From a virus (lineage: Duplodnaviria > Caudoviricetes), in IMG/VR virus record IMGVR_UViG_2974670102_000001, positions 1 to 64,000 of that record: a stretch of 64,000 nucleotides of DNA; one strand, 5' to 3'. The position numbers and the translations under genes are program-made. The notes under the pieces were generated by a model that worked only from the letters and a program-made list of their open reading frames with translations, made no database searches and had not been told where the DNA came from. Shown here one piece after another: positions 1,930-29,405 of the stretch. The stretch's first letter is position 1. The number at the start of each line of letters is the position of its first letter.

Positions 1930-2071
1930 TGCCCCTTGCTTGTTGAATCGATGAGTGAATCATACACGATAAATAAGCCCGTCAACAATACCCGACCGAT
2001 ACTCGGGGTTATTATGCATGCGGGCCCGCGTGTGCTATGATTCGTACATCAACCAACTAAGCGAGTCAGAC

Positions 2072-2284
2072 ATGATCCTAGCAATGGTCAACGCAGCACG
2101 TCGCCGGGGTGGTAACGCTCAGGCAGTAGTGGCGAACGCGTATGAACGCGCATGCGAGTGGGTTGCGGATTGTGGCGGCGACGTGCGGGAATGGTTCGTG
2201 TATGAGGTGCGATGCGTGACCGATTTCGACGGCGCGGATCGTGAGACGTGCGATTGGCTCGCGCAACAATTACAGGAAATGTGA
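2072..2284 (+). CDS. hypothetical phage protein
   Basis: Start at MILAMVNAARR; extended -10 TGcTATGAT upstream. Confidence 0.65.
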   Translation: MILAMVNAARRRGGNAQAVVANAYERACEWVADCGGDVREWFVYEVRCVTDFDGADRETCDWLAQQLQEM

Positions 2285-2398
2285 ATGATCGTCGTTAAGG
2301 TAGTGTTGTGTGCATGGGTCGGATACTGCGCCTATGCAATGGCCCGCGATATCTGGCGCGAGTATGCGCCGCGTGCGCGCACGCGCAAGGGGGCTTAA
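2285..2398 (+). CDS. small membrane protein (37 aa)
   Basis: MIVVKVVLCAWVGYCAYAMARDIW...; fills the gap between two genes exactly. Confidence 0.5.
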   Translation: MIVVKVVLCAWVGYCAYAMARDIWREYAPRARTRKGA

Positions 2399-2400
2399 CC

Positions 2401-2688
2401 ATGGCTCGTTCACTGGTAGGAACAGCAGCAAAGGGCAAGGGCGAACCTGCACGCCCGGCCGCGCCGACCGAATGGGAAGTGTTCTGTAAAGTCTGGCGCG
2501 ATCACTTCGGGGATACGAGCCCGACGCGTGCTGCGTTCGACCTGTGGCAATTGTCGCGTAAGCGTGCACTCGGGCAGGCGGCGCGACTCCATAGCCAATG
2601 GGCGGGAATGTGCCCGGCAGGATCGGGCCGCGCCTACAATCATTCGCTGTATGCGAGCGCGATTACCGACCTATACAAGGATGAATAA
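2401..2688 (+). CDS. hypothetical phage protein
   Basis: Start MARSLVG with RBS AAGGGGG. Confidence 0.65.
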   Translation: MARSLVGTAAKGKGEPARPAAPTEWEVFCKVWRDHFGDTSPTRAAFDLWQLSRKRALGQAARLHSQWAGMCPAGSGRAYNHSLYASAITDLYKDE

Positions 2689-2866
2689 CATGCAGGTTAA
2701 GATACAGCCGACGACCGGGGGCCGCGTTCGTGTCGTCATCGCGAGCGGCTATCGTGCGGGCGCATTCGTGTGTCACGCCTCATCCGATTTCCCTGTCGTC
2801 TGGCCCGACGTAGACGCGGCTAAGACATGGTGCGCGATGACAGGCTATGAGGTAGTGGCACCATGA
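2681..2866 (+). CDS. hypothetical phage protein
   Basis: MNNMQVKIQP...; overlaps neighbouring stops and starts. Confidence 0.6.
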   Translation: MNNMQVKIQPTTGGRVRVVIASGYRAGAFVCHASSDFPVVWPDVDAAKTWCAMTGYEVVAP

Positions 2867-3093
2867 CCGCGCGCACGTCTAAGCCGGTCTCCGTACGCGT
2901 GAAGCGGAATATCTGGGGCAATTGGAACGCGTATGAAGGCGTGCACCATGTACGCGAGCTAGGCGCGTCCGAATTCATGGCCCGTGAATGGTTGCACGAA
3001 CGCATGTCACGCGGGGATTGCGTGCTGTCTCCATCGTCGGACGTGAACCAGACGGAGTTAGACGAGCACAGGCGGCGCGTGTACGGATCATGA
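2863..3093 (+). CDS. hypothetical protein; paralog of the N-terminal domain of 7667..8368
   Basis: ATGA coupling, RBS GAGGT; motif R.(K/R).N..GNW..Y.G shared. Confidence 0.7.
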   Translation: MTARTSKPVSVRVKRNIWGNWNAYEGVHHVRELGASEFMAREWLHERMSRGDCVLSPSSDVNQTELDEHRRRVYGS

Positions 3094-3094
3094 G

Positions 3095-3117
3095 AAAAGG
3101 GGCCTAGGCCCCCTTTC
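3095..3117. terminator. bidirectional intrinsic terminator
   Basis: AAAAGGGGCCTAGGCCCCTTT between convergent genes. Confidence 0.75.
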
Positions 3118-3123
3118 GTTCGT

Positions 3124-3601: not shown

Positions 3602-3624
3602 CAATACCTTAGTGAAATGCTGGG

Positions 3625-3801
3625 TTATACGCGTTCGACGTATTGCCCCGAACGATAGGCGCGCGTTTCCTCTACGCGCCCATAGAATTCCAGATCGAAC
3701 GTTACGATTCCGTTCGCGTCATAGACGAACAGGACAAGGGCCCGCGCCCCGTCGATTTTCAGCGTATCGCCCGCTTGCACGTCCCGCGCTCTTACTTGCA
3801 T
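3625..3801 (-). CDS. small beta-rich (SH3-like) hypothetical protein, 58 aa
   Basis: Hand-translated MQVRARDVQAGDTLKIDGARALVLFV...; RBS GAGGTG; stop lies inside a 27-bp element. Confidence 0.65.
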   Translation of the reverse strand: MQVRARDVQAGDTLKIDGARALVLFVYDANGIVTFDLEFYGRVEETRAYRSGQYVERV

Positions 3802-4556: not shown

Positions 4557-4583
4557 CAATAACCCTTCACTTTATGGGGTTAT

Positions 4584-4787
4584 TCAGTAGGCGAGCAGAT
4601 CGCGCAGCGCATCGCGGTTTTTCGACATATGGTCGATGATCGCGAGCCGTTCGCGTAACCCGATATTGCGGAACGCGGGGCACCCGTCGAGCAGATCGCC
4701 CAGCAAACCGTCCCGATATTCGAGTGCCTTTTCCATGGTGTCGAATTGCTTGCCGCGCGTTACATAGACCCTCTTTTCTTCGATCAC
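4584..4787 (-). CDS. hypothetical phage protein
   Basis: 67 aa, GTG start, RBS AGGGGG. Confidence 0.7.
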   Translation of the reverse strand: MIEEKRVYVTRGKQFDTMEKALEYRDGLLGDLLDGCPAFRNIGLRERLAIIDHMSKNRDALRDLLAY

Positions 4788-5026: not shown

Positions 5027-5245
5027 TTAGCTGCGATCCATGATGAAGCGCGAGACAGCGCGGGGCGTGTTCAGACGAACCGTTTCGTATTCCGTCCGGA
5101 CAGCCGCGCCGTTATAGACGCGCACGGGGTCTTGCACTTCGATAGAACCGTCCTGCATGGATGCGACCGTGTAGCCGTCACGTTCCAGAATTGCCACGTA
5201 GGGCTTCATTGCGTGGAACAGTTCGATTGCGTTAGCTTGTGGCAT
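5027..5245 (-). CDS. hypothetical phage protein
   Basis: 72 aa, RBS GGAG; follows promoter TTGACG-N17-CATAAT. Confidence 0.7.
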   Translation of the reverse strand: MPQANAIELFHAMKPYVAILERDGYTVASMQDGSIEVQDPVRVYNGAAVRTEYETVRLNTPRAVSRFIMDRS

Positions 5246-5336
5246 GGTGCTGACTCCGTGCGCTGCGTTGAAAGTGATTCCATTATGGGGCGTGTTCGAC
5301 GCCCCGTCAACAGTACCCGACTAAAACGCGGGGTCT

Positions 5337-5501
5337 TTAAACCGCTGCCAGTTCATCCGCCCGGAAGTGACCGCGCACGCCGTAGCGATTTTCGCAGACA
5401 ATGAACTCACCCTCGAAGCCGATAACGCGGATCGTTGCGGCATTGACGCCCGTAAGGATGCGAGCGCGAACAGCTTGATTGAGTGCGAATGCGTGTTTCA
5501 T
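5337..5501 (-). CDS. small hypothetical protein
   Basis: Start MKHAFALNQ, RBS AGGA; promoter TTGACG-N17-CATAAT at 5535-5563. Confidence 0.65.
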   Translation of the reverse strand: MKHAFALNQAVRARILTGVNAATIRVIGFEGEFIVCENRYGVRGHFRADELAAV

Positions 5502-5855: not shown

Positions 5856-6002
5856 GATGAACTCCGGTTTCTGGTTAGCGGTTCGTCGTGAACCAATGAA
5901 CGTATAGTAACACGCGAAAAGGGGCGTGCGCAATAACCCTATTTTCTGTAGGGTTATTGCGTCACGCCCCCCCTGAAACGGAGTCGTTATTCTGTGCCCG
6001 TC

Positions 6003-7580: not shown

Positions 7581-7666
7581 TTTGCGCCCCTGCGTTTCGT
7601 TGATCGATGGCTCTATTCTGGGGCCCGCGTTTCGGGCTGTCAACAATACCCGACTAAAACGCGGGG

Positions 7667-8368
7667 TTATTTGGTCGGATGCCGGTCGATACAGGCTTGC
7701 GCTGCCTCGTCTACCGTGTCGAACAGGCCCGAATCCTCAACCCAGAATCGCGCGCTGTAACGATAGTTGTCGCCGATAGGCTGAATCGCGAATCCCAGTT
7801 CACTGCACTGCGTAATCAGGCTCTGTGTATGCTGTTCGGCATCGCGCTTGCGTTGCACGTCGAAATGCGCGCGCATCAGTTCCCGAACGAGCCCGGTTCG
7901 CGCGCTGTCCATCGTCTGAAACGGGCCCGCGATGTTACGCTGTGCCGTTACGTCGAACACGTAGAAAGGCGCGTCGCGGCCGTCGCCCTGTAGCGTGCCA
8001 TCGTCGGCCGTGCCGTCGATTACCAGACAGTTACCGTCGGCCGTGTAGCCGGTGCGCGCTTCGTCCAGTTCGCGAGCCTTTGCGCTCGCGCGCTTAACGG
8101 CCGCCCATGCGGTCGGGGCGGGGGCTGCTGCATCTTCCGTCTTCGCGACCGGTTCGGCATCCACGCGCGGCTGATGGTAGCGGCTGACAGCTTCCGCAAC
8201 CTGTGCGGCGTCGATTTCCGACGCGGCGGACACCACGTGACCCTGTTCGATCAATTCGGCCATATAGCAGCAGACAGCCATTTCGCTATCGCCTTGCGGA
8301 TGCGCGGTGCGGCCGATGTAGACGATCCAGTTACCGTGCATGTTCTTGCGTGCGCGAATCAGGGACAT
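7667..8368 (-). CDS. multi-domain hypothetical protein
   Basis: 233 aa, RBS GGAG; stop inside a 27-bp element. Confidence 0.8.
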   Translation of the reverse strand: MSLIRARKNMHGNWIVYIGRTAHPQGDSEMAVCCYMAELIEQGHVVSAASEIDAAQVAEAVSRYHQPRVDAEPVAKTEDAAAPAPTAWAAVKRASAKARELDEARTGYTADGNCLVIDGTADDGTLQGDGRDAPFYVFDVTAQRNIAGPFQTMDSARTGLVRELMRAHFDVQRKRDAEQHTQSLITQCSELGFAIQPIGDNYRYSARFWVEDSGLFDTVDEAAQACIDRHPTK

Positions 8369-8458
8369 GATGCTAACTCCGTGTGTTGTGTGTCGATGTG
8401 TGTATTCTGGGGCCTATAGTCGGCCCCGTCAACTATTCCCGAGTAAATCACTCAGGTA

Positions 8459-8674
8459 TCACATAGTGCGTTGCCGTGTGTAGAGCACGCGGTTAATGTC
8501 GTCGCGGATGCACACACGATAGGGGCCGTCGCGTTCCACTATGTAGGCCCGCCACTTGTGAATTACGATCGTTCGCGCGCATCCATAGGTGATCATCTTG
8601 TGTTCACCTTCGTCCGCGATCATTTGCGCGTCCTCTTCCGCCAGCTTGGCGGGGCCGTCGTCGTTCGTGCTCAC
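8459..8674 (-). CDS. hypothetical phage protein
   Basis: GTG start (VSTNDDG) with RBS GGGGG. Confidence 0.55.
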   Translation of the reverse strand: MSTNDDGPAKLAEEDAQMIADEGEHKMITYGCARTIVIHKWRAYIVERDGPYRVCIRDDINRVLYTRQRTM

Positions 8675-9123: not shown

Positions 9124-9209
9124 AGCAATTCCCCTTTCCTGTGATTGGTGAGTGTGTCAATCTCAGTATAGGATGCACGCGCGAAAAGCAAAGGCGCACG
9201 TGATCCCGG

Positions 9210-9873: not shown

Positions 9874-10435
9874 CGTCCCTACCCCTTACCCTTCGTTGAC
9901 GGTAACGCTATCCTAATCCAGACAATCCGCCACGTCAACAATAACCCCTCGTTTCAGTCGGGTTTATTTCTGCACAGAAACCCCACACAATCCGGGGTTA
10001 TTCCCGTGCCCGGCTAACCACTCGCAGCACGCTACTTTCTTCATTATAAACACGCGCTACAGCCCCTTAAACGGGCCGCCTGTAGTTTCCCCTACCCATC
10101 AGTCAATCACGCGCACCGGGCCGCCTGAGCGCGTTCTCTGCGTCTATGCGTTCGTCAGGAATGCAGCGCAATGCGGGGCCCGGGCCCGGGCCATTGATCG
10201 GGAATCCTGACGATCCGGGCTCGCGCGATTAGATGATTCGCACTACCGACGAATGCGGTACTTGACGCGCTGCCCCGTCTGTGCCGTGTGCGATGCCCCG
10301 CCCGGGCCCCGCCCCATCCGGTTTTCGTTAGCACAACTAATCGCGCTCGTCAACTATACCCCCTCCCCCCATCCGGTTTTTAGCACCCCCTCCCCCTATC
10401 TGTGGTAGTAAGGTATCCTACCAAAACCCCGTTTT

Positions 10436-10552: not shown

Positions 10553-10583
10553 TGTGCGGTGCGCGTGTGCCGCGTATAAACGG

Positions 10584-10616
10584 AAAAGGGGAACCCCTAT
10601 CATGCAGGTTCCCCTA
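10584..10616 (-). terminator. intrinsic terminator
   Basis: AGGGGAACC...GGTTCCCCT stem followed by TTTT on the minus strand. Confidence 0.65.
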
Positions 10617-11387: not shown

Positions 11388-11470
11388 GGTCTTGTCCAAT
11401 GGGTTAGTTGATGTGGTGATTATGGGGGCTGGCTGCGCCCCCGTCAACTATACCCGTTTAGAGTGTGGGG

Positions 11471-12475
11471 TTATTCTGCTTTGTTCGCGACGAACGCGAG
11501 GGCCTGTACTTCTGCGGCCTGCACGCGTTTATACTCGGCTTCGCTGACAGCCCGGCCCCCGATCCGGATACGCGCCGGAAACTGGTTGAAAATCTCACCC
11601 CGAACACTCGTATTGATGATGATACGCTGGTTGATTACCACGCGTTGACCTACGGGCGTGCGGCCCGTCAACAGGAATTCGTAACCCGTGATCGATTGGA
11701 AAGCCGGGTCTTTCAGGTCGCCCGCCTTCGACATTACCTTGTGCTCTACGCTGTCACGCACGGCGCGGGCGTAGTCTGCGGCACGGGCGCGAAGGCGTTC
11801 GGCGTTGATCGAACCATCGCCATTCGTGCATGCGCGCAGTGTCGAGGCGTAGAATTTCGACCATGCCTTATCGCGGGCGATGCCAGCCAGCAGGGGCCCG
11901 AATTTTGCGACTGCCTGAGCGTGTCGCGCGCTCACGTAGTCTTCGAATTGTGCGACGAGCGCCGGGCCCTGTGCATCGAGTGCGGCGCGCACCACTTCCG
12001 ACAGAACGGGGGCGGACATGGTGCGTTCCACGTGTGCGCGCTGTGAGGTTGCGGCCCGCGTCTCGCGCTTCGCGATCCGGGCTTTTGCGGCCTTCAACGC
12101 GGCTTCAACCTCAATCCATTCCGCAAACAGGTGCACGGCCGTGCGTGCGATAGCGTGTCGGCCAGCGAGTGCGACGGCCGCCCGGTGCATGCGCTTCACA
12201 CTCGGCAGGTTCGACGCATCATAATACAGGTCTTGCAATTCGTCGGGGCGCGGGAACGCGAGCGCCAGATAGGGGGCGCGCACCGCCCATTCCATCAGGT
12301 TTTCATAGACGGTCGTGAGTTCCGCGCGCATTTCCTTGTAATCGACGGCGCGCATGCTATCGGTGCCGCAAAGCTGGGCGATACGCGAATCGAACGCGTT
12401 GATAGCACGTGCATTGTGCGGACGATCCGACAGCAGAATGCGGGCGAGTGCGGCGCGCGTGTTTTGCAGTTCCAT
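11471..12475 (-). CDS. hypothetical phage protein (334 aa)
   Basis: Start re-called at MELQNTR with RBS GAAGGGG; the ORF-track N-terminus derives from the -35 TTG. Confidence 0.85.
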   Translation of the reverse strand: MELQNTRAALARILLSDRPHNARAINAFDSRIAQLCGTDSMRAVDYKEMRAELTTVYENLMEWAVRAPYLALAFPRPDELQDLYYDASNLPSVKRMHRAAVALAGRHAIARTAVHLFAEWIEVEAALKAAKARIAKRETRAATSQRAHVERTMSAPVLSEVVRAALDAQGPALVAQFEDYVSARHAQAVAKFGPLLAGIARDKAWSKFYASTLRACTNGDGSINAERLRARAADYARAVRDSVEHKVMSKAGDLKDPAFQSITGYEFLLTGRTPVGQRVVINQRIIINTSVRGEIFNQFPARIRIGGRAVSEAEYKRVQAAEVQALAFVANKAE

Positions 12476-12707
12476 GGTCTTTCCCCTTCCGGGTTCGTTG
12501 AGCGTGGACAAATAGTAACAGCCCCTTAGAGGGGCCGTCAACAATAACCGACTAAATTAGTCGGTCTTTATCCTGTGCTAACCGTCTTCTGCACGATAGC
12601 CCCGATCCAGTCGGCCGGAATCACGCTGACGGTGCGTGTCACGTCCCCCGCTTCGTCTTCCGATCCGGTCTGTACCGTATGCGTCAGGGGCCGGGGCCCC
12701 CATCCCC

Positions 12708-13217: not shown

Positions 13218-13364
13218 TTTCAAATCTCCGTTTGGTGAGAGTGTGCTACGTGGTTAAGTGGGTGTTGCGTGATTCGTTAAGACAGATTGTAGGGGACTAA
13301 ATTTTGTACGTCAACTAATCCCCTTCAATTTGTGGGGTCTTTTTCGCAGACCCCGGCGCGTTCG

Positions 13365-13622: not shown

Positions 13623-13738
13623 TCCCTAGTTGTGTTGCGTTAATCGATGAAGCAGATTGTAGGGCAATCATTTCCGCCCGTCAACAATACCCCTACAATT
13701 TGCGGGGTCTTTACGGCAGACCCCGGGGCCGGTGCGCG

Positions 13739-14335: not shown

Positions 14336-14446
14336 GATGCTAACTCCGTTTGGTTTGTGCTGCGTTGTGTGAATCGATGTATGAATTATGCCCGCGTCTT
14401 TTTGGCCCGTCAACAGTACCCGAGTATTTTAGTCGGGTATTGTGAC

Positions 14447-15078: not shown

Positions 15079-15104
15079 CAATAAACCCCTTGCGTGTAGG
15101 GTTA

Positions 15105-15647
15105 TTACAGAACCAGTGTTCCGTTATTGATGAGGTAAGACCCGATTGCGGCAACCCGGCCGCGCGCTTGCGCGTCCTTTCGCAGTTCGTGCAGTTCGTC
15201 GGGTTCCATGCTCGTGAGAATGCGCGCCGCCATGGTTTCGGCCGCGTGCACTTCGCGATCTTCGGATTCTGCGACAGCGCGCAGCATGTCGGCCACTTCT
15301 ACCATGTGCCACTTGGCGCGCAGCACGCCCGCGATATCCTGTTCCGTAATTTCGGGCAGATTAACGAGGTCGAGCGGATCGGCCGTGCATGAGGCAAAAA
15401 GCACGCCGTCGGCCGTGTGCAGGGTGACGCTGCGCAGACTCTGCCCCTTGAGCACGCGCCCGAGCGTGTCGGGCAGGGACGTAACGCAGACCGCATAGAG
15501 CGCGGCGTCCGGGCTCGCGACAATGACGATAGATGAATTCTTGTCCATCGCCTTTTTGAAACCCGTTTGCATCAGGTCAACGCATGCGCCTTCGCCAATC
15601 GAGCGGCCCGCATTGTGAATTTTGATTGCGTGCATGATAGTTCCCAT
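15105..15647 (-). CDS. hypothetical phage protein
   Basis: 180 aa (start may be 15635); single-gene unit. Confidence 0.75.
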   Translation of the reverse strand: MGTIMHAIKIHNAGRSIGEGACVDLMQTGFKKAMDKNSSIVIVASPDAALYAVCVTSLPDTLGRVLKGQSLRSVTLHTADGVLFASCTADPLDLVNLPEITEQDIAGVLRAKWHMVEVADMLRAVAESEDREVHAAETMAARILTSMEPDELHELRKDAQARGRVAAIGSYLINNGTLVL

Positions 15648-15733
15648 GTGAGTGATGAATCGATGAGTGAATTATGCGCCCTTGTCTTCAGCCCGTCAAC
15701 AATACCTGAGTAAAGCAGTCGGGTATTGGTGCC

Positions 15734-16567: not shown

Positions 16568-16653
16568 CGTTGCACCTGTTTGGTTAGTCGATGGACAAAT
16601 AATAACGGGCCCCGAAAGGCCCGTCAACAATACCCGACTAAATCGCGGGGTCT

Positions 16654-17343
16654 TTACAGCACGTCCTTAAATTCGTCGTTCAGTCGCTTACGCTGGGCGC
16701 GCAGTTTCTCGATATGGTTACGCGTTTCTTCGCGCCAGATACCGGGGGCATTGCGCACGATCCAAAGGTCGCGCACACGCTGTTCCGTTTCTTCGATATC
16801 GGATTCGAGCCGTCGGGCCGCTTGCCATTTCGCGTCGTATTCCCGTTCGTCTTCCGCGTAGACGCACGCATGCGAATCGGCGTCCGCTGCGGCAGCGCGG
16901 TCACTGTCATAGACAGTCGTGAACACGACGTGTCCATCGTTGTCTGACGTGGTGTAACCCGCGAGATAACGGCCGTGCGTCAGGCGCACAAAGAACGGAC
17001 GCGCTACCTCCGTTCCGTCTTCGTCCGTGAACCATCCTTTGTGGCTGACGTAAGTGCGTCCCGAGCGCGGGTTTTCCGTTTCGTCCAGATAGCACACGCG
17101 GCCGGGCAGCGCGTCATCGTCAAATGTCGAATAGATATCGATCTTGCGGCCGTATTCCGTGTTGTAGCCCGCGCGCAGGCCCGAGTCGTTCGACAGGAAA
17201 TTTCCGAACCGGGCCGAACGCCAATCGATGAGTCGGCCGCCCTTCCCAGCGTTCACCTTGGCATTGTGGGATTCCACGTAGCCGCGAAGGTACGCGAGCC
17301 GCTTCCGTGCGCCAATGCGAAGGTTGCGATAGGTAGTGTTCAT
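16654..17343 (-). CDS. hypothetical phage protein
   Basis: 229 aa; C-terminal coiled coil; stop overlaps a 27-bp element. Confidence 0.8.
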   Translation of the reverse strand: MNTTYRNLRIGARKRLAYLRGYVESHNAKVNAGKGGRLIDWRSARFGNFLSNDSGLRAGYNTEYGRKIDIYSTFDDDALPGRVCYLDETENPRSGRTYVSHKGWFTDEDGTEVARPFFVRLTHGRYLAGYTTSDNDGHVVFTTVYDSDRAAAADADSHACVYAEDEREYDAKWQAARRLESDIEETEQRVRDLWIVRNAPGIWREETRNHIEKLRAQRKRLNDEFKDVL

Positions 17344-17477
17344 AATCGAATCCGTTTAGTTAATCCCGCGTCGCGCGGTATGAAAAGGATTGTACGCGTC
17401 TTATTCCCTGCGTCAACAATAACCCCGCGCAATGAGGGGTTATTGTTGAAGCACTCCGTAGAGTGCGGGCCGCGTCG

Positions 17478-18144: not shown

Positions 18145-18239
18145 GATGTGCCCCGTTAGGCGTTGTCGATGTGTGAAGTATGCCCGGGCCCGCGAGGCGC
18201 GTCAACAGTACCTGAGTATTTTAGTCGGGTATTGCTGCC

Positions 18240-19416: not shown

Positions 19417-19427
19417 GTACCGGACAG

Positions 19428-19872: not shown

Positions 19873-19966
19873 GATGGTTCCCTTAGAGAAGGTTTGTTAA
19901 GTAAGTGTGTGTATCATACCGGGTTTAATTTCGTCCGTCAATTAAACCCGTACTAAAATTAGGCTT

Positions 19967-20107
19967 TTATGCTGCCTGCATGCCGCGCACTTGCCGGATT
20001 GCATCGCGCACTTGCTCACGTGCGAACGGGAACCGGCGCAGGTTGCGCAGACCGTAATTGATGCCGATAAATTCGATTGCCGTTTCGATATCGCGGAAGG
20101 TCTTCAT
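19967..20107 (-). CDS. small hypothetical protein
   Basis: Start MKTFRDI, RBS GGAG. Confidence 0.6.
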   Translation of the reverse strand: MKTFRDIETAIEFIGINYGLRNLRRFPFAREQVRDAIRQVRGMQAA

Positions 20108-20564: not shown

Positions 20565-20658
20565 GGTTGCCTCTAGGCGGTTAGTGCTGCGTTGAAAGTG
20601 ATGCTATTGTATGCGGCCCGTTCTAGAGCCGTCAACAATAACCCACTAATTCGAGGGG

Positions 20659-20940
20659 TTATTCTTCGACCCACAAGCTAGGATCGCACGACGTTTCAAT
20701 CCGGAAGTGCGACGCATCGCGATAACGGCGCACAAACAGGCGGCCGTGCTGCGCGTAGGTCATGCCTTCAGTCAGCCATGAAACATGGTGCAAATCGCCC
20801 GGCATCGGGGATTTGAGCGGCCCTGCGTGCGTGACACGAACGGGCGTGAATTCGTCAGGGAACAGCCGCGCATCGTAGCGCGTGCGCCGATAGTAGAGGG
20901 TCTTACCATCCACGTAATCCTGAAAGCATGCGGGTTTCAT
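20659..20940 (-). CDS. hypothetical phage protein
   Basis: Start MKPACFQ, RBS AAGGGG. Confidence 0.65.
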   Translation of the reverse strand: MKPACFQDYVDGKTLYYRRTRYDARLFPDEFTPVRVTHAGPLKSPMPGDLHHVSWLTEGMTYAQHGRLFVRRYRDASHFRIETSCDPSLWVEE

Positions 20941-20950
20941 GGTCGGCCCC

Positions 20951-21100: not shown

Positions 21101-21189
21101 TTCGTTCCCCTTCGGGTTCGTTGAATCGATGGACAAATAGTAACAGCCCCTTAGAGGGGCCGTCAACAATAACCACAAATAATTTGTGG

Positions 21190-21438
21190 TTATTCGGTGC
21201 GGAACAGGTGCGCGGGCGCGTCGTGCTCGTACCAGTAACGGGCATCGCGTAGCGTGTCATGACTGCCGACCGCGCGGCCGTCGATGCTGACGAGCCATCG
21301 ATTACGCGTAAGCGTCACCATACGCGCATGGGGCGGCCCGTCCGGGCTGTAGTTATCGCGTACCTGTACCAGTGCGCCGGACGGCGTGCAGGCCGCATAC
21401 AGCCCGGCCTCTACACGTTTCAGGGGCGGCCGGTTCAT
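21190..21438 (-). CDS. hypothetical phage protein
   Basis: Start MNRPPLK, ATGA coupling. Confidence 0.6.
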   Translation of the reverse strand: MNRPPLKRVEAGLYAACTPSGALVQVRDNYSPDGPPHARMVTLTRNRWLVSIDGRAVGSHDTLRDARYWYEHDAPAHLFRTE

Positions 21439-21929: not shown

Positions 21930-21942
21930 GGTGTCAAATCCC

Positions 21943-22635: not shown

Positions 22636-22732
22636 GGTCAGCCCCTTTAGGCCGGTCTTTACTGCGTTGAAAGTGATTCTATTCTATGGGGCCTGCTGCC
22701 CCGTGTCAACAATAACCCCAGACTTTACTGGG

Positions 22733-23089
22733 TTATTCGTTGTCCATCATCCCGAGCCGGGCCCGGATCATTGACAGGCGTTCCGATACGGGCACGGCAC
22801 GGCCGCCGCCCAGACGAACCCATCCCGCGCCAGACGGGCACGCGTCAATGTCATGCACCCCGGAATAAGCGGCGCAAATGTCGGCCGCACTGTTAGCCTG
22901 TAGCAGCGTATAACCGGCCGTGCGCGCGTGCTGCGCAGCATCCCGGCCTGACTCCCACACGCGAGCATGCGCCCGGCCCGTCTTCTGTTCACCCTCCCCT
23001 ACAAACTGCGCGGGGCCCTGCGCGACGACACGCAGACGATAGCGCGTCGTGCCTTCGTGTTTCTGACGCATCACATACACTTGTTGCAT
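22733..23089 (-). CDS. hypothetical phage protein
   Basis: 118 aa; single-gene unit; stop inside a 27-bp element. Confidence 0.7.
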   Translation of the reverse strand: MQQVYVMRQKHEGTTRYRLRVVAQGPAQFVGEGEQKTGRAHARVWESGRDAAQHARTAGYTLLQANSAADICAAYSGVHDIDACPSGAGWVRLGGGRAVPVSERLSMIRARLGMMDNE

Positions 23090-23187
23090 ACCCTTAAAAC
23101 TCCCGTTCGTGAATCGATGAGTGCAGTATGTGCGCGTGTGCCCGTACCGTCAACAGTACCAGACTAATTAACTCAGGTATTAGGGCA

Positions 23188-23215
23188 AAAGAAAAGGGCC
23201 CCTAGGGGCCCTTTT
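23188..23215. terminator. bidirectional intrinsic terminator
   Basis: AAAAGAAAAGGGCCCCTAGGGGCCCTTTT. Confidence 0.75.
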
Positions 23216-23231
23216 GCGAGTGCGCGACGGA

Positions 23232-23639
23232 TCAACGATAGAGGTATTCCGTCCCCTCAATATCGATGGTCGAATAATCGACGCTCAGATTTTTGGCGGT
23301 CGCGTCCCAATCGATGACGAGATAGGACGGGATTTCGCGCGGCATGTCCCCGATATCGGACACCAATTGTTCACAATACTCCGTGAAGTGGCTGTCACGA
23401 ATCAGGCAGCCCGGATACCAATTACCCTCATATTGATGGTCGCCGCCTTCCCCGTTCAGTTCGGTCAGGATTTTTTCAAGCTGCTCCAGTTCGACCGCTT
23501 CGTCCGGGTTTTCGTCCGCCCAATCTGCGGCCCGGTCGTCGTCGCTGTCGTGCGTGTCGCGCTCGTCTTTCAGTTCGTCGTAACGGTCGCAAATGTCGGA
23601 CACGTTGATGATATCGGCGCTCAGGTCAAGATCGGACAT
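23232..23639 (-). CDS. ArdA-like acidic antirestriction (DNA-mimic) protein
   Basis: Very acidic 135 aa; FTEYCEQLVSDIG..P..IPSYLVIDWDATAKNL..DY resembles the ArdA C-terminal IDYE/WEA.ARDL..DY motif. Confidence 0.6.
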   Translation of the reverse strand: MSDLDLSADIINVSDICDRYDELKDERDTHDSDDDRAADWADENPDEAVELEQLEKILTELNGEGGDHQYEGNWYPGCLIRDSHFTEYCEQLVSDIGDMPREIPSYLVIDWDATAKNLSVDYSTIDIEGTEYLYR

Positions 23640-23760
23640 GGTGTTTACTCTGCTGTTTGGTTAAGGTGTTACCAGTATAGATGGGAGAATTCCCTGCGTC
23701 AAGAATAACCCCGCATAGTGTAGGGATTATTCTTGACGGGGCCCGAAAGGGCCCGGGCCG

Positions 23761-24150
23761 TTATTCGGCGTCGTCTTCCTCGTCGGCCGTTTCGGTCGCT
23801 TGTTCCACGTCGGGCACTTCCGACGTGCGCCCGAGCGATTCAGCCAGTTCGCGGAACCATACGGCGTCGCACCCGTCCATATCCGTATATTCGGCCGCCA
23901 GTTCCGCAAACGTGCCTTCACGCCCAGCGTAAGGCGACGTGTAGAACGATTCCAGCGCGCCATCGCGCAAGATCGCCGCTTGAAAATCGGCGTTCGTCAG
24001 GAATACGAGCCCGCTATGCGTGTTGAACGCCGCTTGTACCGCTTCGGTGCTGAAGTCTTCGGGCAGGCCGCCATCGTTCCATGCTTGTAGGATCGCGATG
24101 AGTTCATCACGTTCGCGACGGCCCATGTTTGCCATGTTGGTAAGCGACAT
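23761..24150 (-). CDS. acidic hypothetical phage protein
   Basis: 129 aa, RBS AAGGA; FNTHSGLVFLTN motif. Confidence 0.75.
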   Translation of the reverse strand: MSLTNMANMGRRERDELIAILQAWNDGGLPEDFSTEAVQAAFNTHSGLVFLTNADFQAAILRDGALESFYTSPYAGREGTFAELAAEYTDMDGCDAVWFRELAESLGRTSEVPDVEQATETADEEDDAE

Positions 24151-24237
24151 TCGTTTGATTCCTTGTTCGTTCAGAGAGATTACATTGTGCCGGGTAGTGT
24201 TCTCTCTGTCAACAATACCCGAGTGCGGCGCGGGGTC

Positions 24238-24612
24238 TTACTTCGTCAACGCGCCCGACAGGCTTTTGACGCATGCGCCGTAAGCGGGCTCGCGTGCATC
24301 GTCGGGGCTCGCGCCCTTGAATGCGGCGCTGCTGTAAATCAGGGCCGCATTACCCTTCATCAGATCGACAAGCGGACGCGCGACGCCCGCAAACGTGCGT
24401 TCGATATCGGCCTGAGTTTCCGCGAGCGTCACCCCGCTATCACGTGCGCGAACCGACAAAACCGCAACGTCAGCAACGCCGTTACACGTCTGCGAAATGT
24501 TCGCCTTTTCTTCCGCCGTGAGCGGCGCAGCCTGCGCCGGAACCCCAGCCCCGCACGATGCGGCAGTCGCGAGCGCAGCGAACGCGACTGCGGAAACGGT
24601 ACGTTTGAACAT
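24238..24612 (-). CDS. secreted or periplasmic protein with signal peptide
   Basis: MFKRTVSAVAFAALATAASC...AQA; RBS GGAG; paired Cys. Confidence 0.7.
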   Translation of the reverse strand: MFKRTVSAVAFAALATAASCGAGVPAQAAPLTAEEKANISQTCNGVADVAVLSVRARDSGVTLAETQADIERTFAGVARPLVDLMKGNAALIYSSAAFKGASPDDAREPAYGACVKSLSGALTK

Positions 24613-24693
24613 GCTTGATTCTCCGGTTATGCGTCTGTTGAAAGTGAGTCTATTGTATGCGGGCCCGTGTAGGCCCGTCAACAATAAACCCCT

Positions 24694-25050
24694 TTACCCT
24701 AGGGTCTTCGCGATCCGACGCGCCCAGCGTCGAGCATAGCCCGCGCGTCGGCATCCGTGCGGATGCGTCGGCCCCGTGCCCTGCCCCAGACAATACAGAT
24801 AGGCGCGAAGGGCTGCATTGATGCTTTCCGGGGTTGCGCCCAGTTCACGCGCAAGATTTTTGCGCCTCAGTCTGAGCAACGCCATAAGGCTGTCTGCCTC
24901 ATACGTGTAACGTTCGTGTTTCAGGCCCGCATGCGCCATGATGCACGAATCGATTGAGACACGGGCGCGCGGTTGCATAGCCGCCGCCCAGCCCGGAACC
25001 GGGGCCTTTCGTTGTCGCCAATATTCGGCGTGTTCGCCTGTCACGATCAT
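24694..25050 (-). CDS. hypothetical phage protein
   Basis: Start MIVTGEH, ATGA coupling. Confidence 0.6.
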   Translation of the reverse strand: MIVTGEHAEYWRQRKAPVPGWAAAMQPRARVSIDSCIMAHAGLKHERYTYEADSLMALLRLRRKNLARELGATPESINAALRAYLYCLGQGTGPTHPHGCRRAGYARRWARRIAKTLG

Positions 25051-25343
25051 GACTTGAGCCCCCGCACGAAACGGCAGACACCCATGTACTGACGGCGACA
25101 ATCGGCCAGCCACGCGGCCCATGCTTCGGGGTATTCCCGGCCCCAGCCGATATAGAACCCGATCAAATCCTGATCGCGCCTTTGATTGCAGGACAGGGCG
25201 TCCGACAACGCGAATTTATCCACGTCGAGCCGTTCCAGTTGATCGCGGATCGAATCGACCAACATGCACCCCGAGCCACGCACCCATGCATAAAACTCGA
25301 ATTCGTTGATCGTGTCATCGGCAAACTTCACTTGGTTTTCCAT
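25047..25343 (-). CDS. hypothetical phage protein
   Basis: 98 aa, RBS GAAGGGG. Confidence 0.7.
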   Translation of the reverse strand: MENQVKFADDTINEFEFYAWVRGSGCMLVDSIRDQLERLDVDKFALSDALSCNQRRDQDLIGFYIGWGREYPEAWAAWLADCRRQYMGVCRFVRGLKS

Positions 25344-25430
25344 TTCGTTCCCCTTCCGGGTTCGTTGAGCGTGAAACCAGTATAGACGGGCGCGCGGCGC
25401 ACGTCAACAATAACCCCGTGCTCTATGGGG

Positions 25431-25853
25431 TTAAATCAAAATCATTTCCGTGTAACCCAGCGTCCGGGCAATTGCCAGCAGCGCATCATTACCCGCGCCC
25501 TGTTCGCACGACTCAAACGCGATTGGTGCGCCCGCGTCGTCGCGTATATCGATCCCTGCCGACACTAGGGCCCGGTCGAACGCGAGCCCGAACGATTCAC
25601 GCCCCGCGCTCGTCTTCGCCACGCCGTAACCTGACGTGGTAGCGGCCCCGCAACGAACCCACAGCGACGCATAGAGGTTCGTTGCGGACGTGCTGCGCGA
25701 TGCCCAGTAACGCAATTCGCACACGTGTTCAAGCTTACCCGTTACCGGGTTAAGGGCAACGAGGGAAACGGTGCGGATGCGTTCCTTCGTCCCGTCGTGC
25801 TGCTGCGCGTTATCCTGTTCACCCTTAAACGTTACTTGCATACGTTGCCTCAT
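25431..25853 (-). CDS. hypothetical phage protein
   Basis: 140 aa, ATGA coupling; stop inside a 27-bp element. Confidence 0.7.
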   Translation of the reverse strand: MRQRMQVTFKGEQDNAQQHDGTKERIRTVSLVALNPVTGKLEHVCELRYWASRSTSATNLYASLWVRCGAATTSGYGVAKTSAGRESFGLAFDRALVSAGIDIRDDAGAPIAFESCEQGAGNDALLAIARTLGYTEMILI

Positions 25854-26353
25854 TCCGCCGCATTCTTGCCAAGGTGTTCCGCGAGCGGTTCACCATTTTT
25901 CATCAGCGTAACCGACTCCCCGGCCGCGCGCCCCGTCCCCTCGTCGGACGTGATGACCCATGCATCATAGGCTGCATACGCGGCCGTTCGGTCGTCGCCT
26001 TCGTACACGGTGCCGACGTTACCGACGATGACGAGATAGCCCGTGTTCGTCGGGTTCGCGATGCCTTCAATGACTTCGATAGCTTGCTCGCGCGTGCTGT
26101 AGCGGTGGAACTCGCCCAGCGTTTCCACGTTGCCGGTTTCCCCGTCGATCTTGCGCACCGAAAATTTCGTGATCCCCGACGGGTTCGTTTCCTGCGAAAC
26201 GAAATAGTACGAGCCGAAAATCAGCCAGCCCCGGGCCGGAAGTCGGGTCTTGAAAAACTTCATTGCATCAGCATCGAACCAGTGCCCGTTAGGATTCTTT
26301 TCGGCGTAGTGCGCGCGAATCGTGGACATGGTGACGGTCTTAGCGTTTTTCAT
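25850..26353 (-). CDS. two-domain hypothetical phage protein
   Basis: Start MKNAKTV, RBS AAGGGG; GHWFD...MKFF.TR motif. Confidence 0.8.
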   Translation of the reverse strand: MKNAKTVTMSTIRAHYAEKNPNGHWFDADAMKFFKTRLPARGWLIFGSYYFVSQETNPSGITKFSVRKIDGETGNVETLGEFHRYSTREQAIEVIEGIANPTNTGYLVIVGNVGTVYEGDDRTAAYAAYDAWVITSDEGTGRAAGESVTLMKNGEPLAEHLGKNAAE

Positions 26354-26451
26354 TTGGTGCCCCTTTAGGCGTCGTGATTGGATGACTGAATTATGCGCGG
26401 GCCCGTCTGGCGTGTCAACAATAACCCCAAAATTTTTATGGTTATTCAGGC

Positions 26452-26476
26452 AAAGAAAAAGCCCCGGCTGGGGCTT
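26452..26476 (-). terminator. intrinsic terminator
   Basis: AAGCCCCAGCCGGGGCTTTTTCTTT. Confidence 0.7.
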
Positions 26477-26627
26477 AGAGGATGCGGGCCGCCTGTATGG
26501 CCGCCGCTCGCGTTCGGGCCGTCCCGTGAGACTGGCCCCGCACGTCAAAAATTTCCCACAAGCGACGGTCGCCTACACGCTGCACGTAGCCGCGTAGCGT
26601 CCCCCGCTCGTCGTAAACCGGGGTCAT
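26475..26627 (-). CDS. small hypothetical protein
   Basis: Start MTPVYDE, ATGA coupling. Confidence 0.55.
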   Translation of the reverse strand: MTPVYDERGTLRGYVQRVGDRRLWEIFDVRGQSHGTARTRAAAIQAARIL

Positions 26628-27301
26628 GATCCGCGCGTGTCGAGCACTTCCGCCGCTTCCGTAATCGTAAGGTTCGGCACGCCGTCCACCATCCACGTTT
26701 CGACCGTCTGCCCGGCAATCCGGCGCAGGTAGACGGAAACCGGGACATTACGCAACCGGCCATGTCGCGCGGCCCCGAACGCTGCGAGTTCGTCCGATTT
26801 TGCGGCAAACCGAGCGACAATGGATTCTGCGAAGTCAACCAGTTCACGGGCTGCCGCAAGCGGGATAGCCTTGTGCGGTTGCGGGGCCGCGACTCGCGCA
26901 ACCTCGTTTTCTGCGTCGCGTTGCTGGGTGAACGTGCCCCGTCCGTCAACGTACCAGTTACACACGATCCAATCACGGGCCCGCGTATGGATCGCGCAGC
27001 ACGTGACAGGCACGCCCCCGATATCTGCGGTTTCCGCATGATCGTCTTTCGACGTGCGGGCGATCTCGCGCGCTTCGTTCGCGAGTTTCGACAGTTCGGC
27101 CGAAATTTGATCGATGGTCATTACTTGTCCGTTCAACATGGCTTCGAATTCCATTTCATTTTCGAGAAAATACAGTTCGGGGGTGCCCGCGATAAGATGC
27201 CGGGCCGCCCGCGCTTGCTCGGCACGCCATTCCGGATTATCGGGGAATGCGCGCCGGGCCCGGGCTAGTTCGATCCGCAAGTGTAGCGCGAGCGGTGACA
27301 T
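26624..27301 (-). CDS. hypothetical phage protein
   Basis: 225 aa; TAATG coupling with the upstream gene. Confidence 0.7.
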   Translation of the reverse strand: MSPLALHLRIELARARRAFPDNPEWRAEQARAARHLIAGTPELYFLENEMEFEAMLNGQVMTIDQISAELSKLANEAREIARTSKDDHAETADIGGVPVTCCAIHTRARDWIVCNWYVDGRGTFTQQRDAENEVARVAAPQPHKAIPLAAARELVDFAESIVARFAAKSDELAAFGAARHGRLRNVPVSVYLRRIAGQTVETWMVDGVPNLTITEAAEVLDTRGS

Positions 27302-27786
27302 TATGCGACGAGCCGCTTAACGGGTTCAACGCTGCGCGGGTGATAAACCCAGCGCAGTTCAGCCAGCAAGGGCGCGTATTCTTCCGGGGTTGCCAGCTTC
27401 AAATCGCGGCCCAGACTGCGCGACACTTCCCCATGCTGCCCCGTGTGCATGTAGGACATCACGTTACCCGGGTTGCAGTCTTTCGCGCTGTTACAGAAAA
27501 ACGCGATTACGTAACCCTCGCGAAACTTGCGGAACACGACACGCAACGCGGGCGGCGCAAACTTCGCGGCCCCGTAGCGCTGCGCGTCTTCGGACAGGGC
27601 GCGCACGCCCGAGGGGTCATGTGCATCCCGCGAGCCGTGAACGTCGACCAGATCGCCGCTGCGCTTATCGAATTGAAACGTGATCGGAACGCGGGGGCCA
27701 AACCCGGGCCATTTGCGCGCGAACGCTTCAACGTCTGCGGTCGTGCACTGCACGGTAAAGAATGCCCCATTATCATATGCTCGCAT
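27301..27786 (-). CDS. two-domain hypothetical phage protein
   Basis: 161 aa, RBS GAGG; C-terminal VVFRKF...SYMHTGQHG...ATPEEYAPLL.EL domain. Confidence 0.8.
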   Translation of the reverse strand: MRAYDNGAFFTVQCTTADVEAFARKWPGFGPRVPITFQFDKRSGDLVDVHGSRDAHDPSGVRALSEDAQRYGAAKFAPPALRVVFRKFREGYVIAFFCNSAKDCNPGNVMSYMHTGQHGEVSRSLGRDLKLATPEEYAPLLAELRWVYHPRSVEPVKRLVA

Positions 27787-27882
27787 GGTTGCCTCTAGGC
27801 GGTTGTGCTGCTGTTGAAAGTGAAACCAGTATAGGACGGGGCCGCCGCCCCGTCAACAATACCAGACTACCGCGAGGGGTCT

Positions 27883-28254
27883 TTATTCCGTGCCCCGCAA
27901 GCGACGTACAATTTCCGCGTGCGACAGGCCCGACATAAGACGGTCAATTTCCGCTTGCTCGTCCGCCTGCCGTCGCTCGTCTTCTGCTACCTGCCTAGCG
28001 AGTTCTGCGCGCCACTCTTTCAGGGCCCGCGCGCCCTTTTCCGTGCTGCGCGGATCAACCGACAGATAGAGCGTGACTTCGCGCCCCTCCCGGTCAACGA
28101 AAACGGGCGTGCCGCTATTTTTCACCACTACCGTGAAATGCGACTGAACCAGACGGTTTACGGTGTCGGCATCGATAGCCCCGCCAAACGATCCGCCCAC
28201 AACCTTCCGCGTGTTGTCGCTGTAGAGGCGCGTGTGATAGCTGATATTGCGCAT
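27883..28254 (-). CDS. hypothetical phage protein
   Basis: 123 aa; single-gene unit. Confidence 0.75.
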   Translation of the reverse strand: MRNISYHTRLYSDNTRKVVGGSFGGAIDADTVNRLVQSHFTVVVKNSGTPVFVDREGREVTLYLSVDPRSTEKGARALKEWRAELARQVAEDERRQADEQAEIDRLMSGLSHAEIVRRLRGTE

Positions 28255-28331
28255 GTCAAACCCTGTTGGTGCGTTGAAAGTGATACCAGTATAGGGGCGG
28301 CGGGCCGCCCCGTCAACAGTATCCGATTAAT

Positions 28332-28676
28332 TTAGTCGGGTTTGTCGTCCTGCACTTGTGCGCCCGGCCGCGCCAGCTTTTCCAGCTTGGCAAGCAACGA
28401 AACAGCGTCCTTAACGTAGCAGGTGCACGCGGGCCGCTTCGCCTCATACTCTGCTACTGCCTGAGCATGCGCCGCCCGGTCTCCGTCCTTAACACGGCCG
28501 CCCGGCCCCCGCTTAGGGCCGCCCCCGAAAATCTGTTGAGCGTGTCTGTTGTGAACGGCAACCGCGCAGCTATAGGCGTGCATCGGATGCCGGATGAGGG
28601 GCCCGAAAATCGCGAGCACGTCCCGCGCTAAATCGGCTTGCCCGTCGTCGTATGCTTGATTGTATGCGTCCTGCAT
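28332..28676 (-). CDS. hypothetical phage protein
   Basis: 114 aa, RBS GAGGGG. Confidence 0.7.
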   Translation of the reverse strand: MQDAYNQAYDDGQADLARDVLAIFGPLIRHPMHAYSCAVAVHNRHAQQIFGGGPKRGPGGRVKDGDRAAHAQAVAEYEAKRPACTCYVKDAVSLLAKLEKLARPGAQVQDDKPD

Positions 28677-28687
28677 GGTGTTTCCCC

Positions 28688-28912
28688 TCAGTGATCGCGT
28701 TTAACGCTAGTGACGTTGCCGTTATGCTTGCGCACTTCCCAATTGATGCCGTAGTGGCTGAACCCGGTAACACGGTGCGCGCCCGCGTATCGGCCTTCCG
28801 CCACGTCGAACGAATGATCTTTCGTGATCGTGCCGTAACGCCTGCATTCGGCCGCTACCTCGTCAAGACTGCCTGCCTTGAATGCCGTGATGAGTTCTGC
28901 TTTGGTCAACAT
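28688..28912 (-). CDS. hypothetical phage protein
   Basis: 74 aa; follows promoter TTGCAC-N18-TACAAT. Confidence 0.7.
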   Translation of the reverse strand: MLTKAELITAFKAGSLDEVAAECRRYGTITKDHSFDVAEGRYAGAHRVTGFSHYGINWEVRKHNGNVTSVKRDH

Positions 28913-28999
28913 GGTTTGTCGTTCGGTTCGTTAGAGTGACGCCATTGTATAGGGCAAGTGGGCGCGCGTGCAATACCCCTAAAAAGTTTTTGGTTTTTG

Positions 29000-29405
29000 T
29001 TGACGCGGCCGGGGAAGCGTGTAGAATGGGAACCGGTGAGCAACACGGGCAAACGCAGCCGCGACGCGGTGGGGAACCCGGAGCCCGGCCCCTGCCCGGT
29101 CGCGCAAACGTTTGCGCCGGGTGTCCGGAGTACCCGACAAAAACGCTAGGGTACTATTGACGCGACCGCGAATAGGGCGCACAATTCGATTCATGGTGAA
29201 CGCGACGCGGACACCGAACCCGGCCGATTCGGCCAATGTCGAAAAAAGTGAAAAAACTTGTTGACATGCTGCAAATCCGGGTTCATAATGCTTTCCATGG
29301 TGACGCGACAGCGACGCCCCAGCCCCGGACACGGGGTCATCCCGGGGCCCGCGACAGCGACACCCGCGAAAATCGCTTGACGTGCAGGGCCGGGGCCGCT
29401 ATAGT
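29000..29405 (+). promoter_or_regulatory. cluster of four tandem rightward sigma70-like promoters
   Basis: TTGACG-N16-TAGAAT (29000-29027), TTGACG-N17-CACAAT (29157-29185), TTGACA-N17-CATAAT (29261-29289), TTGACG-N17-TATAGT (29377-29405). Confidence 0.7.

Follow-up and report, generated by a model that had tools for sequence, protein, structure and literature searches.

Fixed-length dyads beside the -35 box of early promoters in the jumbo phage BcepSauron: a putative protein-binding site within a repeated promoter cassette

The early arm and its cassettes

The window studied here, a whole stretch of 64 kb, is the start of a 262,653-bp contig of 58% GC and represents the left arm of the Burkholderia jumbo phage BcepSauron. 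Within its early arm, a 27-bp inverted repeat, hereafter the dyad, recurs in the gaps between small genes, immediately upstream of the -35 box of promoters. Proteins of the early arm fall in clusters of at least 90% identity with proteins of BcepSaruman, the sister phage of BcepSauron (93% average nucleotide identity), and a tail sheath gene lies at 36003-38000, both of which are consistent with the name BcepSauron. The lineage is Sarumanvirus, related to RSL1 and non-T4-like. In the related phage Matilda, genes of the terminal segments peak at the earliest time point sampled (10.64898/2026.10.21.760668, a preprint that lists BcepSaruman under MK552140). Long inverted repeats bounding the 27-kb arm, as in Matilda, were not found when the BcepSauron assembly was searched.

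A home-made gene map based on codon bias, together with the intergenic sequences, defined a cassette of ~92 bp that is repeated ~30 times. It reads, in order, stop codon, dyad, a single G, TTGAC(G/A), a 17-bp spacer, TAnAAT, a conserved leader, a Shine-Dalgarno sequence, and ATG. The leader is one of a few versions, CACTTTCAAC, CATCGATTCA, or CAYGCTCAACGAACCCGGAAGGGG. Intergenic gaps are typically 86-98 bp long, and dyads end at a median of 65 nt from the start codon. In 16 of the 31 minus-strand copies, those that face a minus-strand gene (28972 and 29129 being excluded), the left arm of the dyad contains the upstream stop codon or borders on it. Promoter-like sites of the form TTGAC(G/A)-N16-18-TAnnnT are dense, with 31 between 10 and 30 kb as compared with 7.7 +/- 2.7 in shuffles. 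All cassettes lie within 2-29 kb and precede unrelated small ORFan genes. These early genes are mostly ORFans, or have scattered homologs without known function; since they have no paralogs among themselves, gene duplication was ruled out as the source of the repeats. The word (C)ATCGATTAA/CA begins a few bases past the -10 box of many promoters, inside the early arm and outside it (window 61103; genome 244448, 254214, 258679, and 261000), and is predicted to be a conserved transcript 5' end or leader word.

Short cassettes of this kind are known as promoter-early stem-loops (PeSLs) in the T4-type phages RB49/phi1, PST/T4, and nt-1/KVP40 (Arbiol et al. 2010, PMC2839356; Comeau et al. 2014, PMC4122927). 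A sequence-only reading made earlier of the same DNA had named PeSLs as background only. In fact, they are the known kind that the cassette resembles most when taken as a whole, stop codon through start codon, and the cassette probably represents a PeSL-like system in a new, non-T4 lineage.

Census, geometry, and distribution of the dyad

The sequence-only reading had counted about 33 copies of a fixed 27-bp dyad, welded to the -35 box of nearly every early promoter and absent after 29.2 kb. A census anchored on the -35 box gave 33 copies, all between 1987 and 29155, plus one degenerate copy at 10355 (Table 1). Allowing up to two mismatches, the pattern AATAMCC-N13-GGKTATT had 25 matches in the window against 0.20 expected, a number that none of 100 shuffles reached. 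The whole genome held 26 such matches, and the only two outside 1987-29155, at 31541 and 174508, are ordinary GC hairpins. An independent repeat search recovered the same family (22 copies as D1 and 19 as D2). Length constancy was also borne out: with at most one mismatch, a scan of spacer lengths gave 14 matches for N13, three for N12, which were the same elements in a shifted register, one each for N14 and N15, and zero for the others. From 3.6 to 28.4 kb, the minus strand has 30 promoters of the form TTGAC-N16-18-TAnnnT, and in 28 of them the dyad occupies -63 to -37, with one G before the -35 box; those at 5563 and 18349 are the two without it. In contrast, the dyad was found at none of 29 comparable intergenic TTGAC promoters elsewhere in the genome. 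The earlier description therefore stood as regards number, length, position, and range, and so did the orphan tandem copy at 9976 and the presence of dyads at both divergent promoter regions, 1987 and 28972.

Conservation was concentrated at the outer positions of the dyad, which are as conserved as the -35 box: C at -58 in 32 of the 33 copies, C at -57, G at -42, and T at -40 in 31 each, and A at -39 in 29. These positions belong to two outer half-sites of 7 bp, AAWRMCC and GGKTAYT, whose centers are 20 bp apart, that is, about two helical turns. The interior is near-saturated in sequence, and the central columns are not conserved. The polarity of the stem, a C-run followed by a G-run, is the same in all copies, and a TTATTGTT tract directly follows the dyad. 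The arms belong to a few types (AATACCCGACTAA, AATAACCCC..., and AAAGACCCCGCG), and in at least seven copies a left arm of type B is combined with a right arm of type A out of pairing register, the copies still measuring 27 bp (chimeric arms in Table 1). The family shows what the operator of a dimeric protein is expected to show: conserved inverted half-sites at a fixed spacing around a free spacer.

Table 1. Copies of the dyad in the window, with the -35 box of the adjoining promoter
Coordinates	Strand	Form	-35 box	Remarks
1987..2013	-	27 bp	TTGAC at 1985 (minus)	Faces the plus-strand extended -10 promoter of 2018-2284; chimeric arms, left AATAACCCCG type, right AGTCGGGTATT-like
3603..3629	-	27 bp	3601	Upstream stop codon inside left arm; stem -0.2 kcal/mol
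4558..4584	-	27 bp	4556	
5312..5338	-	27 bp	5310	Chimeric arms AAAGACCCCGCG / AGTCGGGTACT
5932..5958	-	27 bp	Weak (TTGCGC), after dyad	
7645..7671	-	27 bp	7643	Chimeric arms
8434..8460	-	27 bp	8432	
9940..9966	-	Outer frame 28-29 bp	9938	Promoter-proximal half of tandem pair
9976..10002	-	Orphan tandem copy	No promoter	36 bp from copy 9940
10355..10381	-	Degenerate	TTGAC next, -10 poor	Outer arms and 27-bp frame retained; interior not self-complementary
11449..11475	-	27 bp	11447	Chimeric arms
12543..12569	-	27 bp, 12-3-12, nearly perfect	12541	
13316..13342	-	27 bp	13314	Left arm can alternatively pair with upstream GGGGTCT
13686..13712	-	27 bp	13684	Alternative upstream pairing as in copy 13316
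14415..14441	-	27 bp	14413	Canonical terminator (GC hairpin and T-run) upstream, 14454-14469
15080..15106	-	27 bp	15078	
15701..15727	-	27 bp	15699	Canonical terminator immediately upstream
16629..16655	-	27 bp	16627	Chimeric arms
17418..17444	-	27 bp	17416	Symmetry reaches ~35 bp (CAACAATAA...TTATTGTTG)
18207..18233	-	27 bp	18205	Canonical terminator immediately upstream
19943..19969	-	Weak, diverged	19941	
20637..20663	-	27 bp	20635	
21168..21194	-	27 bp, perfect 13-1-13	21166	Promoter module as at 12541, dyad interior different
22711..22737	-	27 bp	22709	
23155..23181	-	27 bp	23153	Canonical terminator immediately upstream
23704..23730	-	28-bp frame	23702	Linker C instead of G, matched by a far-left-flank G (GTCAAG...CTTGAC)
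24214..24240	-	27 bp	24212	Chimeric arms
24683..24709	-	27 bp	24681	Right arm and promoter as in copy 15080, left arm different
25409..25435	-	27 bp	25407	
26420..26446	-	27 bp	26418	Canonical terminator upstream, 26459-26476
27858..27884	-	27 bp	27856	Chimeric arms
28318..28344	-	27 bp	28316	Cassette leader joined to the leader at 5263 in run X3
28972..28998	+	27 bp	29000 (plus)	Between divergent promoters, the other being the minus-strand promoter of 28688-28912; center AAAAAGTTTTT resembles A-tract units at 29.7-30.1 kb
29129..29155	+	27 bp	29157 (plus)	

We then considered where else the dyad occurs. It had no match in the Burkholderia jumbo phage BCSR5 and two matches only in RSL1, both ordinary terminators. 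The dyad followed by GTTGAC gave nine single matches across 185,579 species genomes, none of them Burkholderia. With neither BCSR5 nor any Burkholderia genome matching, the dyad appears lineage-specific and not host-determined; a site for a host factor or of the UP type would be expected to occur also in the genomes of the host or in its other phages. This bears on one alternative, in which the dyad is a protein-independent architectural element or one read by the RNA polymerase alpha subunit (UP-like). Three AT patches centered near -61, -50, and -39, spaced ~11 bp apart with GC clamps between them, would bend DNA or dock alpha C-terminal domains, making the promoters very strong in a GC-rich host. 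The dyad does have AT-rich columns at -63 to -59, -52 to -47, and -41 to -37 that alternate with G/C blocks, and promoters elsewhere in the genome often carry in its place a different, A-tract-type stretch, AAAAGNNg, at -44 to -38. Yet, such an element does not account for the invariable C of the left block and G of the right one, that is, a true dyad, or for the recurrence of arm types of 11-13 nt, and the jumbo phage of the same host genus lacks it. We regard this alternative as improbable.

In metagenome contigs, the dyad and GTTGAC pattern gave 22 matches, about half of which fall in one group of freshwater phage contigs of 40-46% GC. These contigs have several AA(W)N(M)CC-N12/13-GG(K)N(W)TT dyads per few kb and share with BcepSauron the junction GGGTTATT-G-TTGACA-N17-TATAAT. 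In five of them (L237, L239, L246, L251, and L255, up to 222 kb), the dyads are AT-flanked in a frame of ~27 bp, and copies other than the seeds peak at N12/N13. No kinship is claimed because no proteins common to these contigs and BcepSauron were found. Nothing comparable was seen in relatives collected by their sheath protein (51-65% identity; five large and four smaller contigs), a result that is uninformative rather than negative; these relatives, which include one complete 243-kb contig and four fragments, are without TTGAC promoter clusters. Exact 15-mer scans of viral contigs with GGGTTATTGTTGACG and TCGGGTAYTGTTGAC gave single matches per contig, taken as chance. Megablast and blastn searches of the region and of a single cassette against a phage collection from which close kin were left out gave no match, and a search for related loci with one early protein found no relatives.

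Folding of the dyad and the place of termination

As RNA, the dyads fold at a mean of -6.9 kcal/mol, with 11 of the 33 copies at -9 kcal/mol or better and ten weaker than -5, and 60% of the symmetric positions form Watson-Crick pairs. The register is exact: 66.9% of cells pair at slide 0, and this falls to 36-48% once the partner column is shifted. Within copies, the excess of pairing was small: 66.9% of cells against 62.0 +/- 1.6 in shuffles, a covariation score of 0.234 against 0.180, and 89 of 198 interior Watson-Crick pairs against 72 +/- 8 after arms were swapped between copies (p = 0.02). Arm-swapped chimeras folded at a mean of -6.0 kcal/mol. The sequence-only reading had reported matching changes on both arms. 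Some covariation is indeed present, but it is slighter than stated, which indicates that the symmetry resides mainly in the consensus of the family, many of whose copies are chimeric. G:T mismatches (29) are no more frequent than A:C mismatches (34); there is no strand bias and, therefore, no sign of selection on the sense RNA. Cruciform extrusion, also put forward earlier, was ruled out for most copies, since too few positions pair. At 13316-13370 and 13686-13740, we noticed that the left arm, AGACCCC, has two possible partners, the right arm and a GGGGTCT just upstream, which gives mutually exclusive hairpins.

Strong hairpins were found in other parts of the cassette. In about 18 of 28 early promoters, the 17-bp spacer between the -35 and -10 boxes is a GC-rich inverted repeat of -10 to -18 kcal/mol (window 3572-28310; for example, 12516-12540, 16603-16626, 21141-21165, 27834-27850, and 28294-28310). 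The mean for spacer hairpins is -9.8 kcal/mol in the early arm (z = -2.1 against spacer shuffles) and -3.0 kcal/mol elsewhere in the genome (z = -0.1), the difference being significant (p = 1.7e-5). In five spacer hairpins, a T-rich tail extends across the -10 box, and a terminator scan, whose range did not include the cassettes at 3601 and 4556, flagged the first three of those just listed. The scan gave 30 terminator-like sites in total against 25.2 +/- 4.5 in shuffles. The earlier reading was incomplete in this respect, as it had overlooked the stronger GC hairpin inside most spacers. These inverted repeats are probably terminators or 3'-end hairpins hidden in the next promoter. Beyond the early arm, terminator-like hairpins are interwoven with several consensus promoters, the -10 or -35 box being in the loop and a T-run behind (window 61103 and 63369; genome 217308, 223693, 244832, and 252554); such hairpins are complete only in read-through RNA coming from upstream.

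A strong spacer hairpin is missing from ten cassettes, and these ten include all five cassettes with a canonical terminator directly upstream of the dyad (Table 1; Fisher p = 0.003, by hand calculation); four more of the ten have another hairpin upstream. Nearly every cassette thus holds one strong GC hairpin and a dyad, which sets the dyad apart from termination. Where genes converge, and at ends with no promoter behind them, we found canonical GC hairpins with T-runs (1083-1118, 3094-3123, and 19388-19415) and not the dyad, the tandem copy at 9976 being the only dyad without a promoter. In the divergent promoter regions, the dyads have no upstream gene needing termination. When an intrinsic terminator was defined as a GC stem of at least five pairs with a T-rich tract within 2 nt, about 4 of the 33 dyads qualified (22717-22732 on both strands, 15084-15103, 12547-12565, and 11453-11469). 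An Rfam search of 1-33 kb gave no matches.

A possibility was that the dyad is nonetheless a stem-loop of the PeSL type, whose RNA fold and UUAUUGUU tract would act as a weak bidirectional intrinsic terminator or attenuator. It would insulate each small gene from read-through, its T-tract doubling as the AT-rich stretch upstream of the -35 box. Several observations speak for this and, by the same token, weigh against protein binding. The consensus, namely A-tract, C-run, AT-rich loop, G-run, and TTATT, in exact register, fits a bidirectional terminator, and action in both directions would also account for the missing strand bias. Roughly one copy in three has a fold energy of -9 to -12 kcal/mol, and some within-copy covariation is present. 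With the upstream stop codon embedded in the left arm in about half of the minus-strand copies, conservation of that arm could partly be that of a TAA stop. In the unrelated freshwater contigs, the same GGGTTATT-G-TTGACA (TTATT-G-TTGACA) junction also follows true tetraloop hairpins. The equivalent stem-loops of T4-like phages, which sit at the same position, have been shown to terminate transcription (PMC2839356), the nt-1 version reading A3-4 G3 loop C3 T3-4 (PMC2839356, PMC4122927).

Other observations fit a terminator poorly. Besides the few copies flagged by the scan and the ten that fold weakly, arm-swapped chimeras fold nearly as well as real copies. The length of the dyad is fixed, whereas natural terminators vary, and the conserved A at -39 breaks the U-tract in 29 of 33 copies. 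The dyad is almost never seen at promoterless gene ends, where GC hairpins and T-runs stand instead. The stronger GC hairpin of nearly every cassette, either upstream or in the spacer, is distributed in a complementary manner, and the C-then-G polarity is opposite to that of PeSLs and of this genome's own terminators. Likewise, the degenerate copy at 10355 retains arms and length despite an unpaired interior, a poor fit to a hairpin. By comparison with a PeSL stem-loop, the dyad occupies -63 to -37 with its modest mean fold, and the strong hairpins lie elsewhere in the cassette. A terminator role for the dyad, the main rival to protein binding, is, in our view, rather unlikely, though less so than an UP-like role.

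We tentatively favor, at somewhat less than even probability, the view that the dyad is a putative symmetric protein-binding site marking one class of promoters. It is preferred because the frame is fixed and the interior free, the half-sites are as conserved as the -35 box, and the stems are weak and often chimeric; because there is no strand bias; because the dyad is coupled to one promoter class and rarely occurs alone; and because a separate hairpin is found in nearly every cassette. A dimeric protein would read the duplex symmetrically through the two 7-bp outer half-sites beside the -35 box. The binder would mark and co-regulate one class of promoters used by host RNA polymerase, for example, by shutting them off early or boosting them. 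Termination, or RNA 3' structure, would come from the separate strong GC hairpin upstream of the dyad or in the -35/-10 spacer. The anatomy of the cassette, its fixed geometry, its restriction to one class, and its mosaicism are observed; protein binding and the direction of regulation are what we infer.

In a narrower form, the dyad would be the operator of a putative phage protein, genome-encoded or virion-borne, that switches ~30 early promoters and roughly 60 genes. This operator, proposed in the sequence-only reading, remains the leading specific candidate by virtue of its fixed spacing, half-sites, variable interior, missing strand bias, and restriction to one class; the binder itself is putative, and we hold this version still more tentatively than protein binding in general. 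Two further points count against protein binding. No binder was found, the small ORFs at the edges of the region being without a recognizable DNA-binding domain. Moreover, the dyad could owe its fixed length and position to inheritance as part of the cassette, with recombination keeping the copies alike.

Rearrangement, neighboring features, and known systems

Cassettes are mosaic. Distances between cassettes computed for the upstream flank, left arm, right arm, spacer, and leader were only weakly correlated (Mantel r = 0.1-0.24), and identical promoter modules occur with different dyads (12541 and 21166; 15078 and 24681). We compared the contigs of four public runs over 9201-29200. In run X3, an activated-sludge metagenome relative that is 93-95% identical, exactly 36 bp are missing at 9937-9974, that is, one tandem dyad unit. 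In the same run, a contig end at 28270 continues as 5234-5263 with one mismatch, which places the joint in homologous leaders 23 kb apart. In runs X1 and X2 (at least 99% identity), foreign sequence begins left of 9861, 12 nt into the open reading frame (ORF) that follows a cassette. Indels or replacements between near-identical relatives, as known for PeSLs, amounted to three events.

A recombination site used to move genes had been one of the two proposals of the sequence-only reading. A dedicated, dif-like site of 11-5-11 form, cut and rejoined in its AT-rich core to move gene cassettes, would suit the chimeric copies, which look as if arms had been exchanged at the center with length unchanged, and the relative that differs by exactly one 36-bp unit. 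In phage RB49, the crossover of a mini-circle was mapped in the stem-loop's loop, in one case (PMC2839356). However, no Phage_integrase (PF00589) or Resolvase (PF00239) domain was found in the 262-kb genome, the controls being positive in 14 and 12 of 14 genomes, which makes a site for a tyrosine or serine recombinase unlikely. The 5263/28270 joint lies in the shared leader and not in the dyad, the replacement in X1 and X2 begins after the cassette, and all cassette segments reassort, not the arms alone. A core site of a tyrosine recombinase would have a cognate recombinase and conserved arms around a conserved center; here, the core is not conserved. We therefore consider a dedicated recombination site very unlikely, the least probable of the alternatives. 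What stands of the proposal is that the three events seen lie at cassettes or just after one. Given these joints and the missing recombinase domain, cassettes appear to be seams at which ordinary exchange, homologous or slipped, takes place; the same has been proposed for PeSLs.

Other features of the arm were noted. The 169-aa early gene at 12708-13217 (minus strand) has no partner of at least 90% identity in BcepSaruman, whereas its neighbors have one, and in run X3 the 88 bp directly downstream of it (12618-12707) are swapped for 327 other letters. Two 49-nt direct repeats, 98% identical and 74 bp apart, lie at 10436-10558 inside a 284-bp gene-free gap, and each ends with a GC hairpin and a T-run on the plus strand. 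At 29600-30200, ~20 A-tract palindromes resembling CAAAAACTTTTG recur with a period of ~20 bp, flanked by four plus-strand promoters without ORFs (29000-29377) and by the ORF at 30204-31175; this array could serve as an origin or as a site for partition or protein loading. The latter ORF (plus strand, 323 aa), at the boundary of the early arm, has an N-terminal GIY-YIG nuclease domain and several helix-turn-helix repeats, a predicted layout that is that of a homing endonuclease.

Nearly all genes in the early, host-takeover arms of jumbo phages are of unknown function, and the timing of their expression is not understood. One 27-bp word at ~30 promoters of the same class offers a direct handle on early transcription, in a family of Burkholderia cepacia-complex phages whose genome architecture is only recently being described. 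The PeSL-type layout probably reaches beyond T4-like phages. Stem-loop and upstream dyad may be distinct parts with distinct jobs, and terminator hairpins may hide in the -35/-10 spacer. If the operator reading is true, the dyad would belong to a master switch for the early class of a jumbo phage, and the GC hairpins in the spacers would terminate.

Among known protein-binding sites, those of phi29 protein p4 come close in geometry. They are inverted repeats, 5'-CTTTTT-N15-AAAATG-3', upstream of and overlapping early/late promoters, and they switch a temporal class of promoters. Like the dyads, they have a 27-bp frame with short outer half-sites about two helical turns apart, beside the -35 box of promoters used by host polymerase. 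In contrast, phi29 has few sites as compared with more than 30 here, there is no sequence similarity, and no p4-like protein was identified in BcepSauron. The stoperators of mycobacteriophage L5 and the conserved inverted repeats of Streptomyces phage phiC31 are, like the dyads, short protein-binding words present by the tens in early-region gaps. They are repressor sites of temperate phages and, unlike the dyads, are not known to stand at a fixed distance from every promoter; no integrase was found in the BcepSauron genome.

With bidirectional Rho-independent terminators, the dyad shares the order A-tract, GC stem, loop, GC stem, and T-tract, as well as an intergenic location overlapping stop codons. 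It differs from them in its fixed length, its weak and often mismatched stems, its interrupted T-tract, its attachment to promoters everywhere but at 9976, and the stronger canonical hairpin alongside.

PeSLs differ in that BcepSauron is a non-T4-like Sarumanvirus with a GC-rich genome, in that its dyad is a rigid 27-bp frame with conserved outer half-sites, C-then-G polarity, and a weak fold, and in that its strong GC hairpins form elements of their own, located either in the -35/-10 spacer or upstream of the dyad. In PeSLs, the stem-loop terminates transcription, and mini-circles form between cassettes. As in PeSLs, short repeated intergenic cassettes carry a near-consensus early promoter of the sigma70 type, whose -35 box is immediately preceded by an AT-rich stretch and a dyad or stem-loop, and the 3' end holds a Shine-Dalgarno sequence and start codon. 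In both systems, the cassettes are dense among small ORFans and chimeric cassettes occur; the indels or replacements seen between close relatives of BcepSauron may likewise fall at the cassettes.

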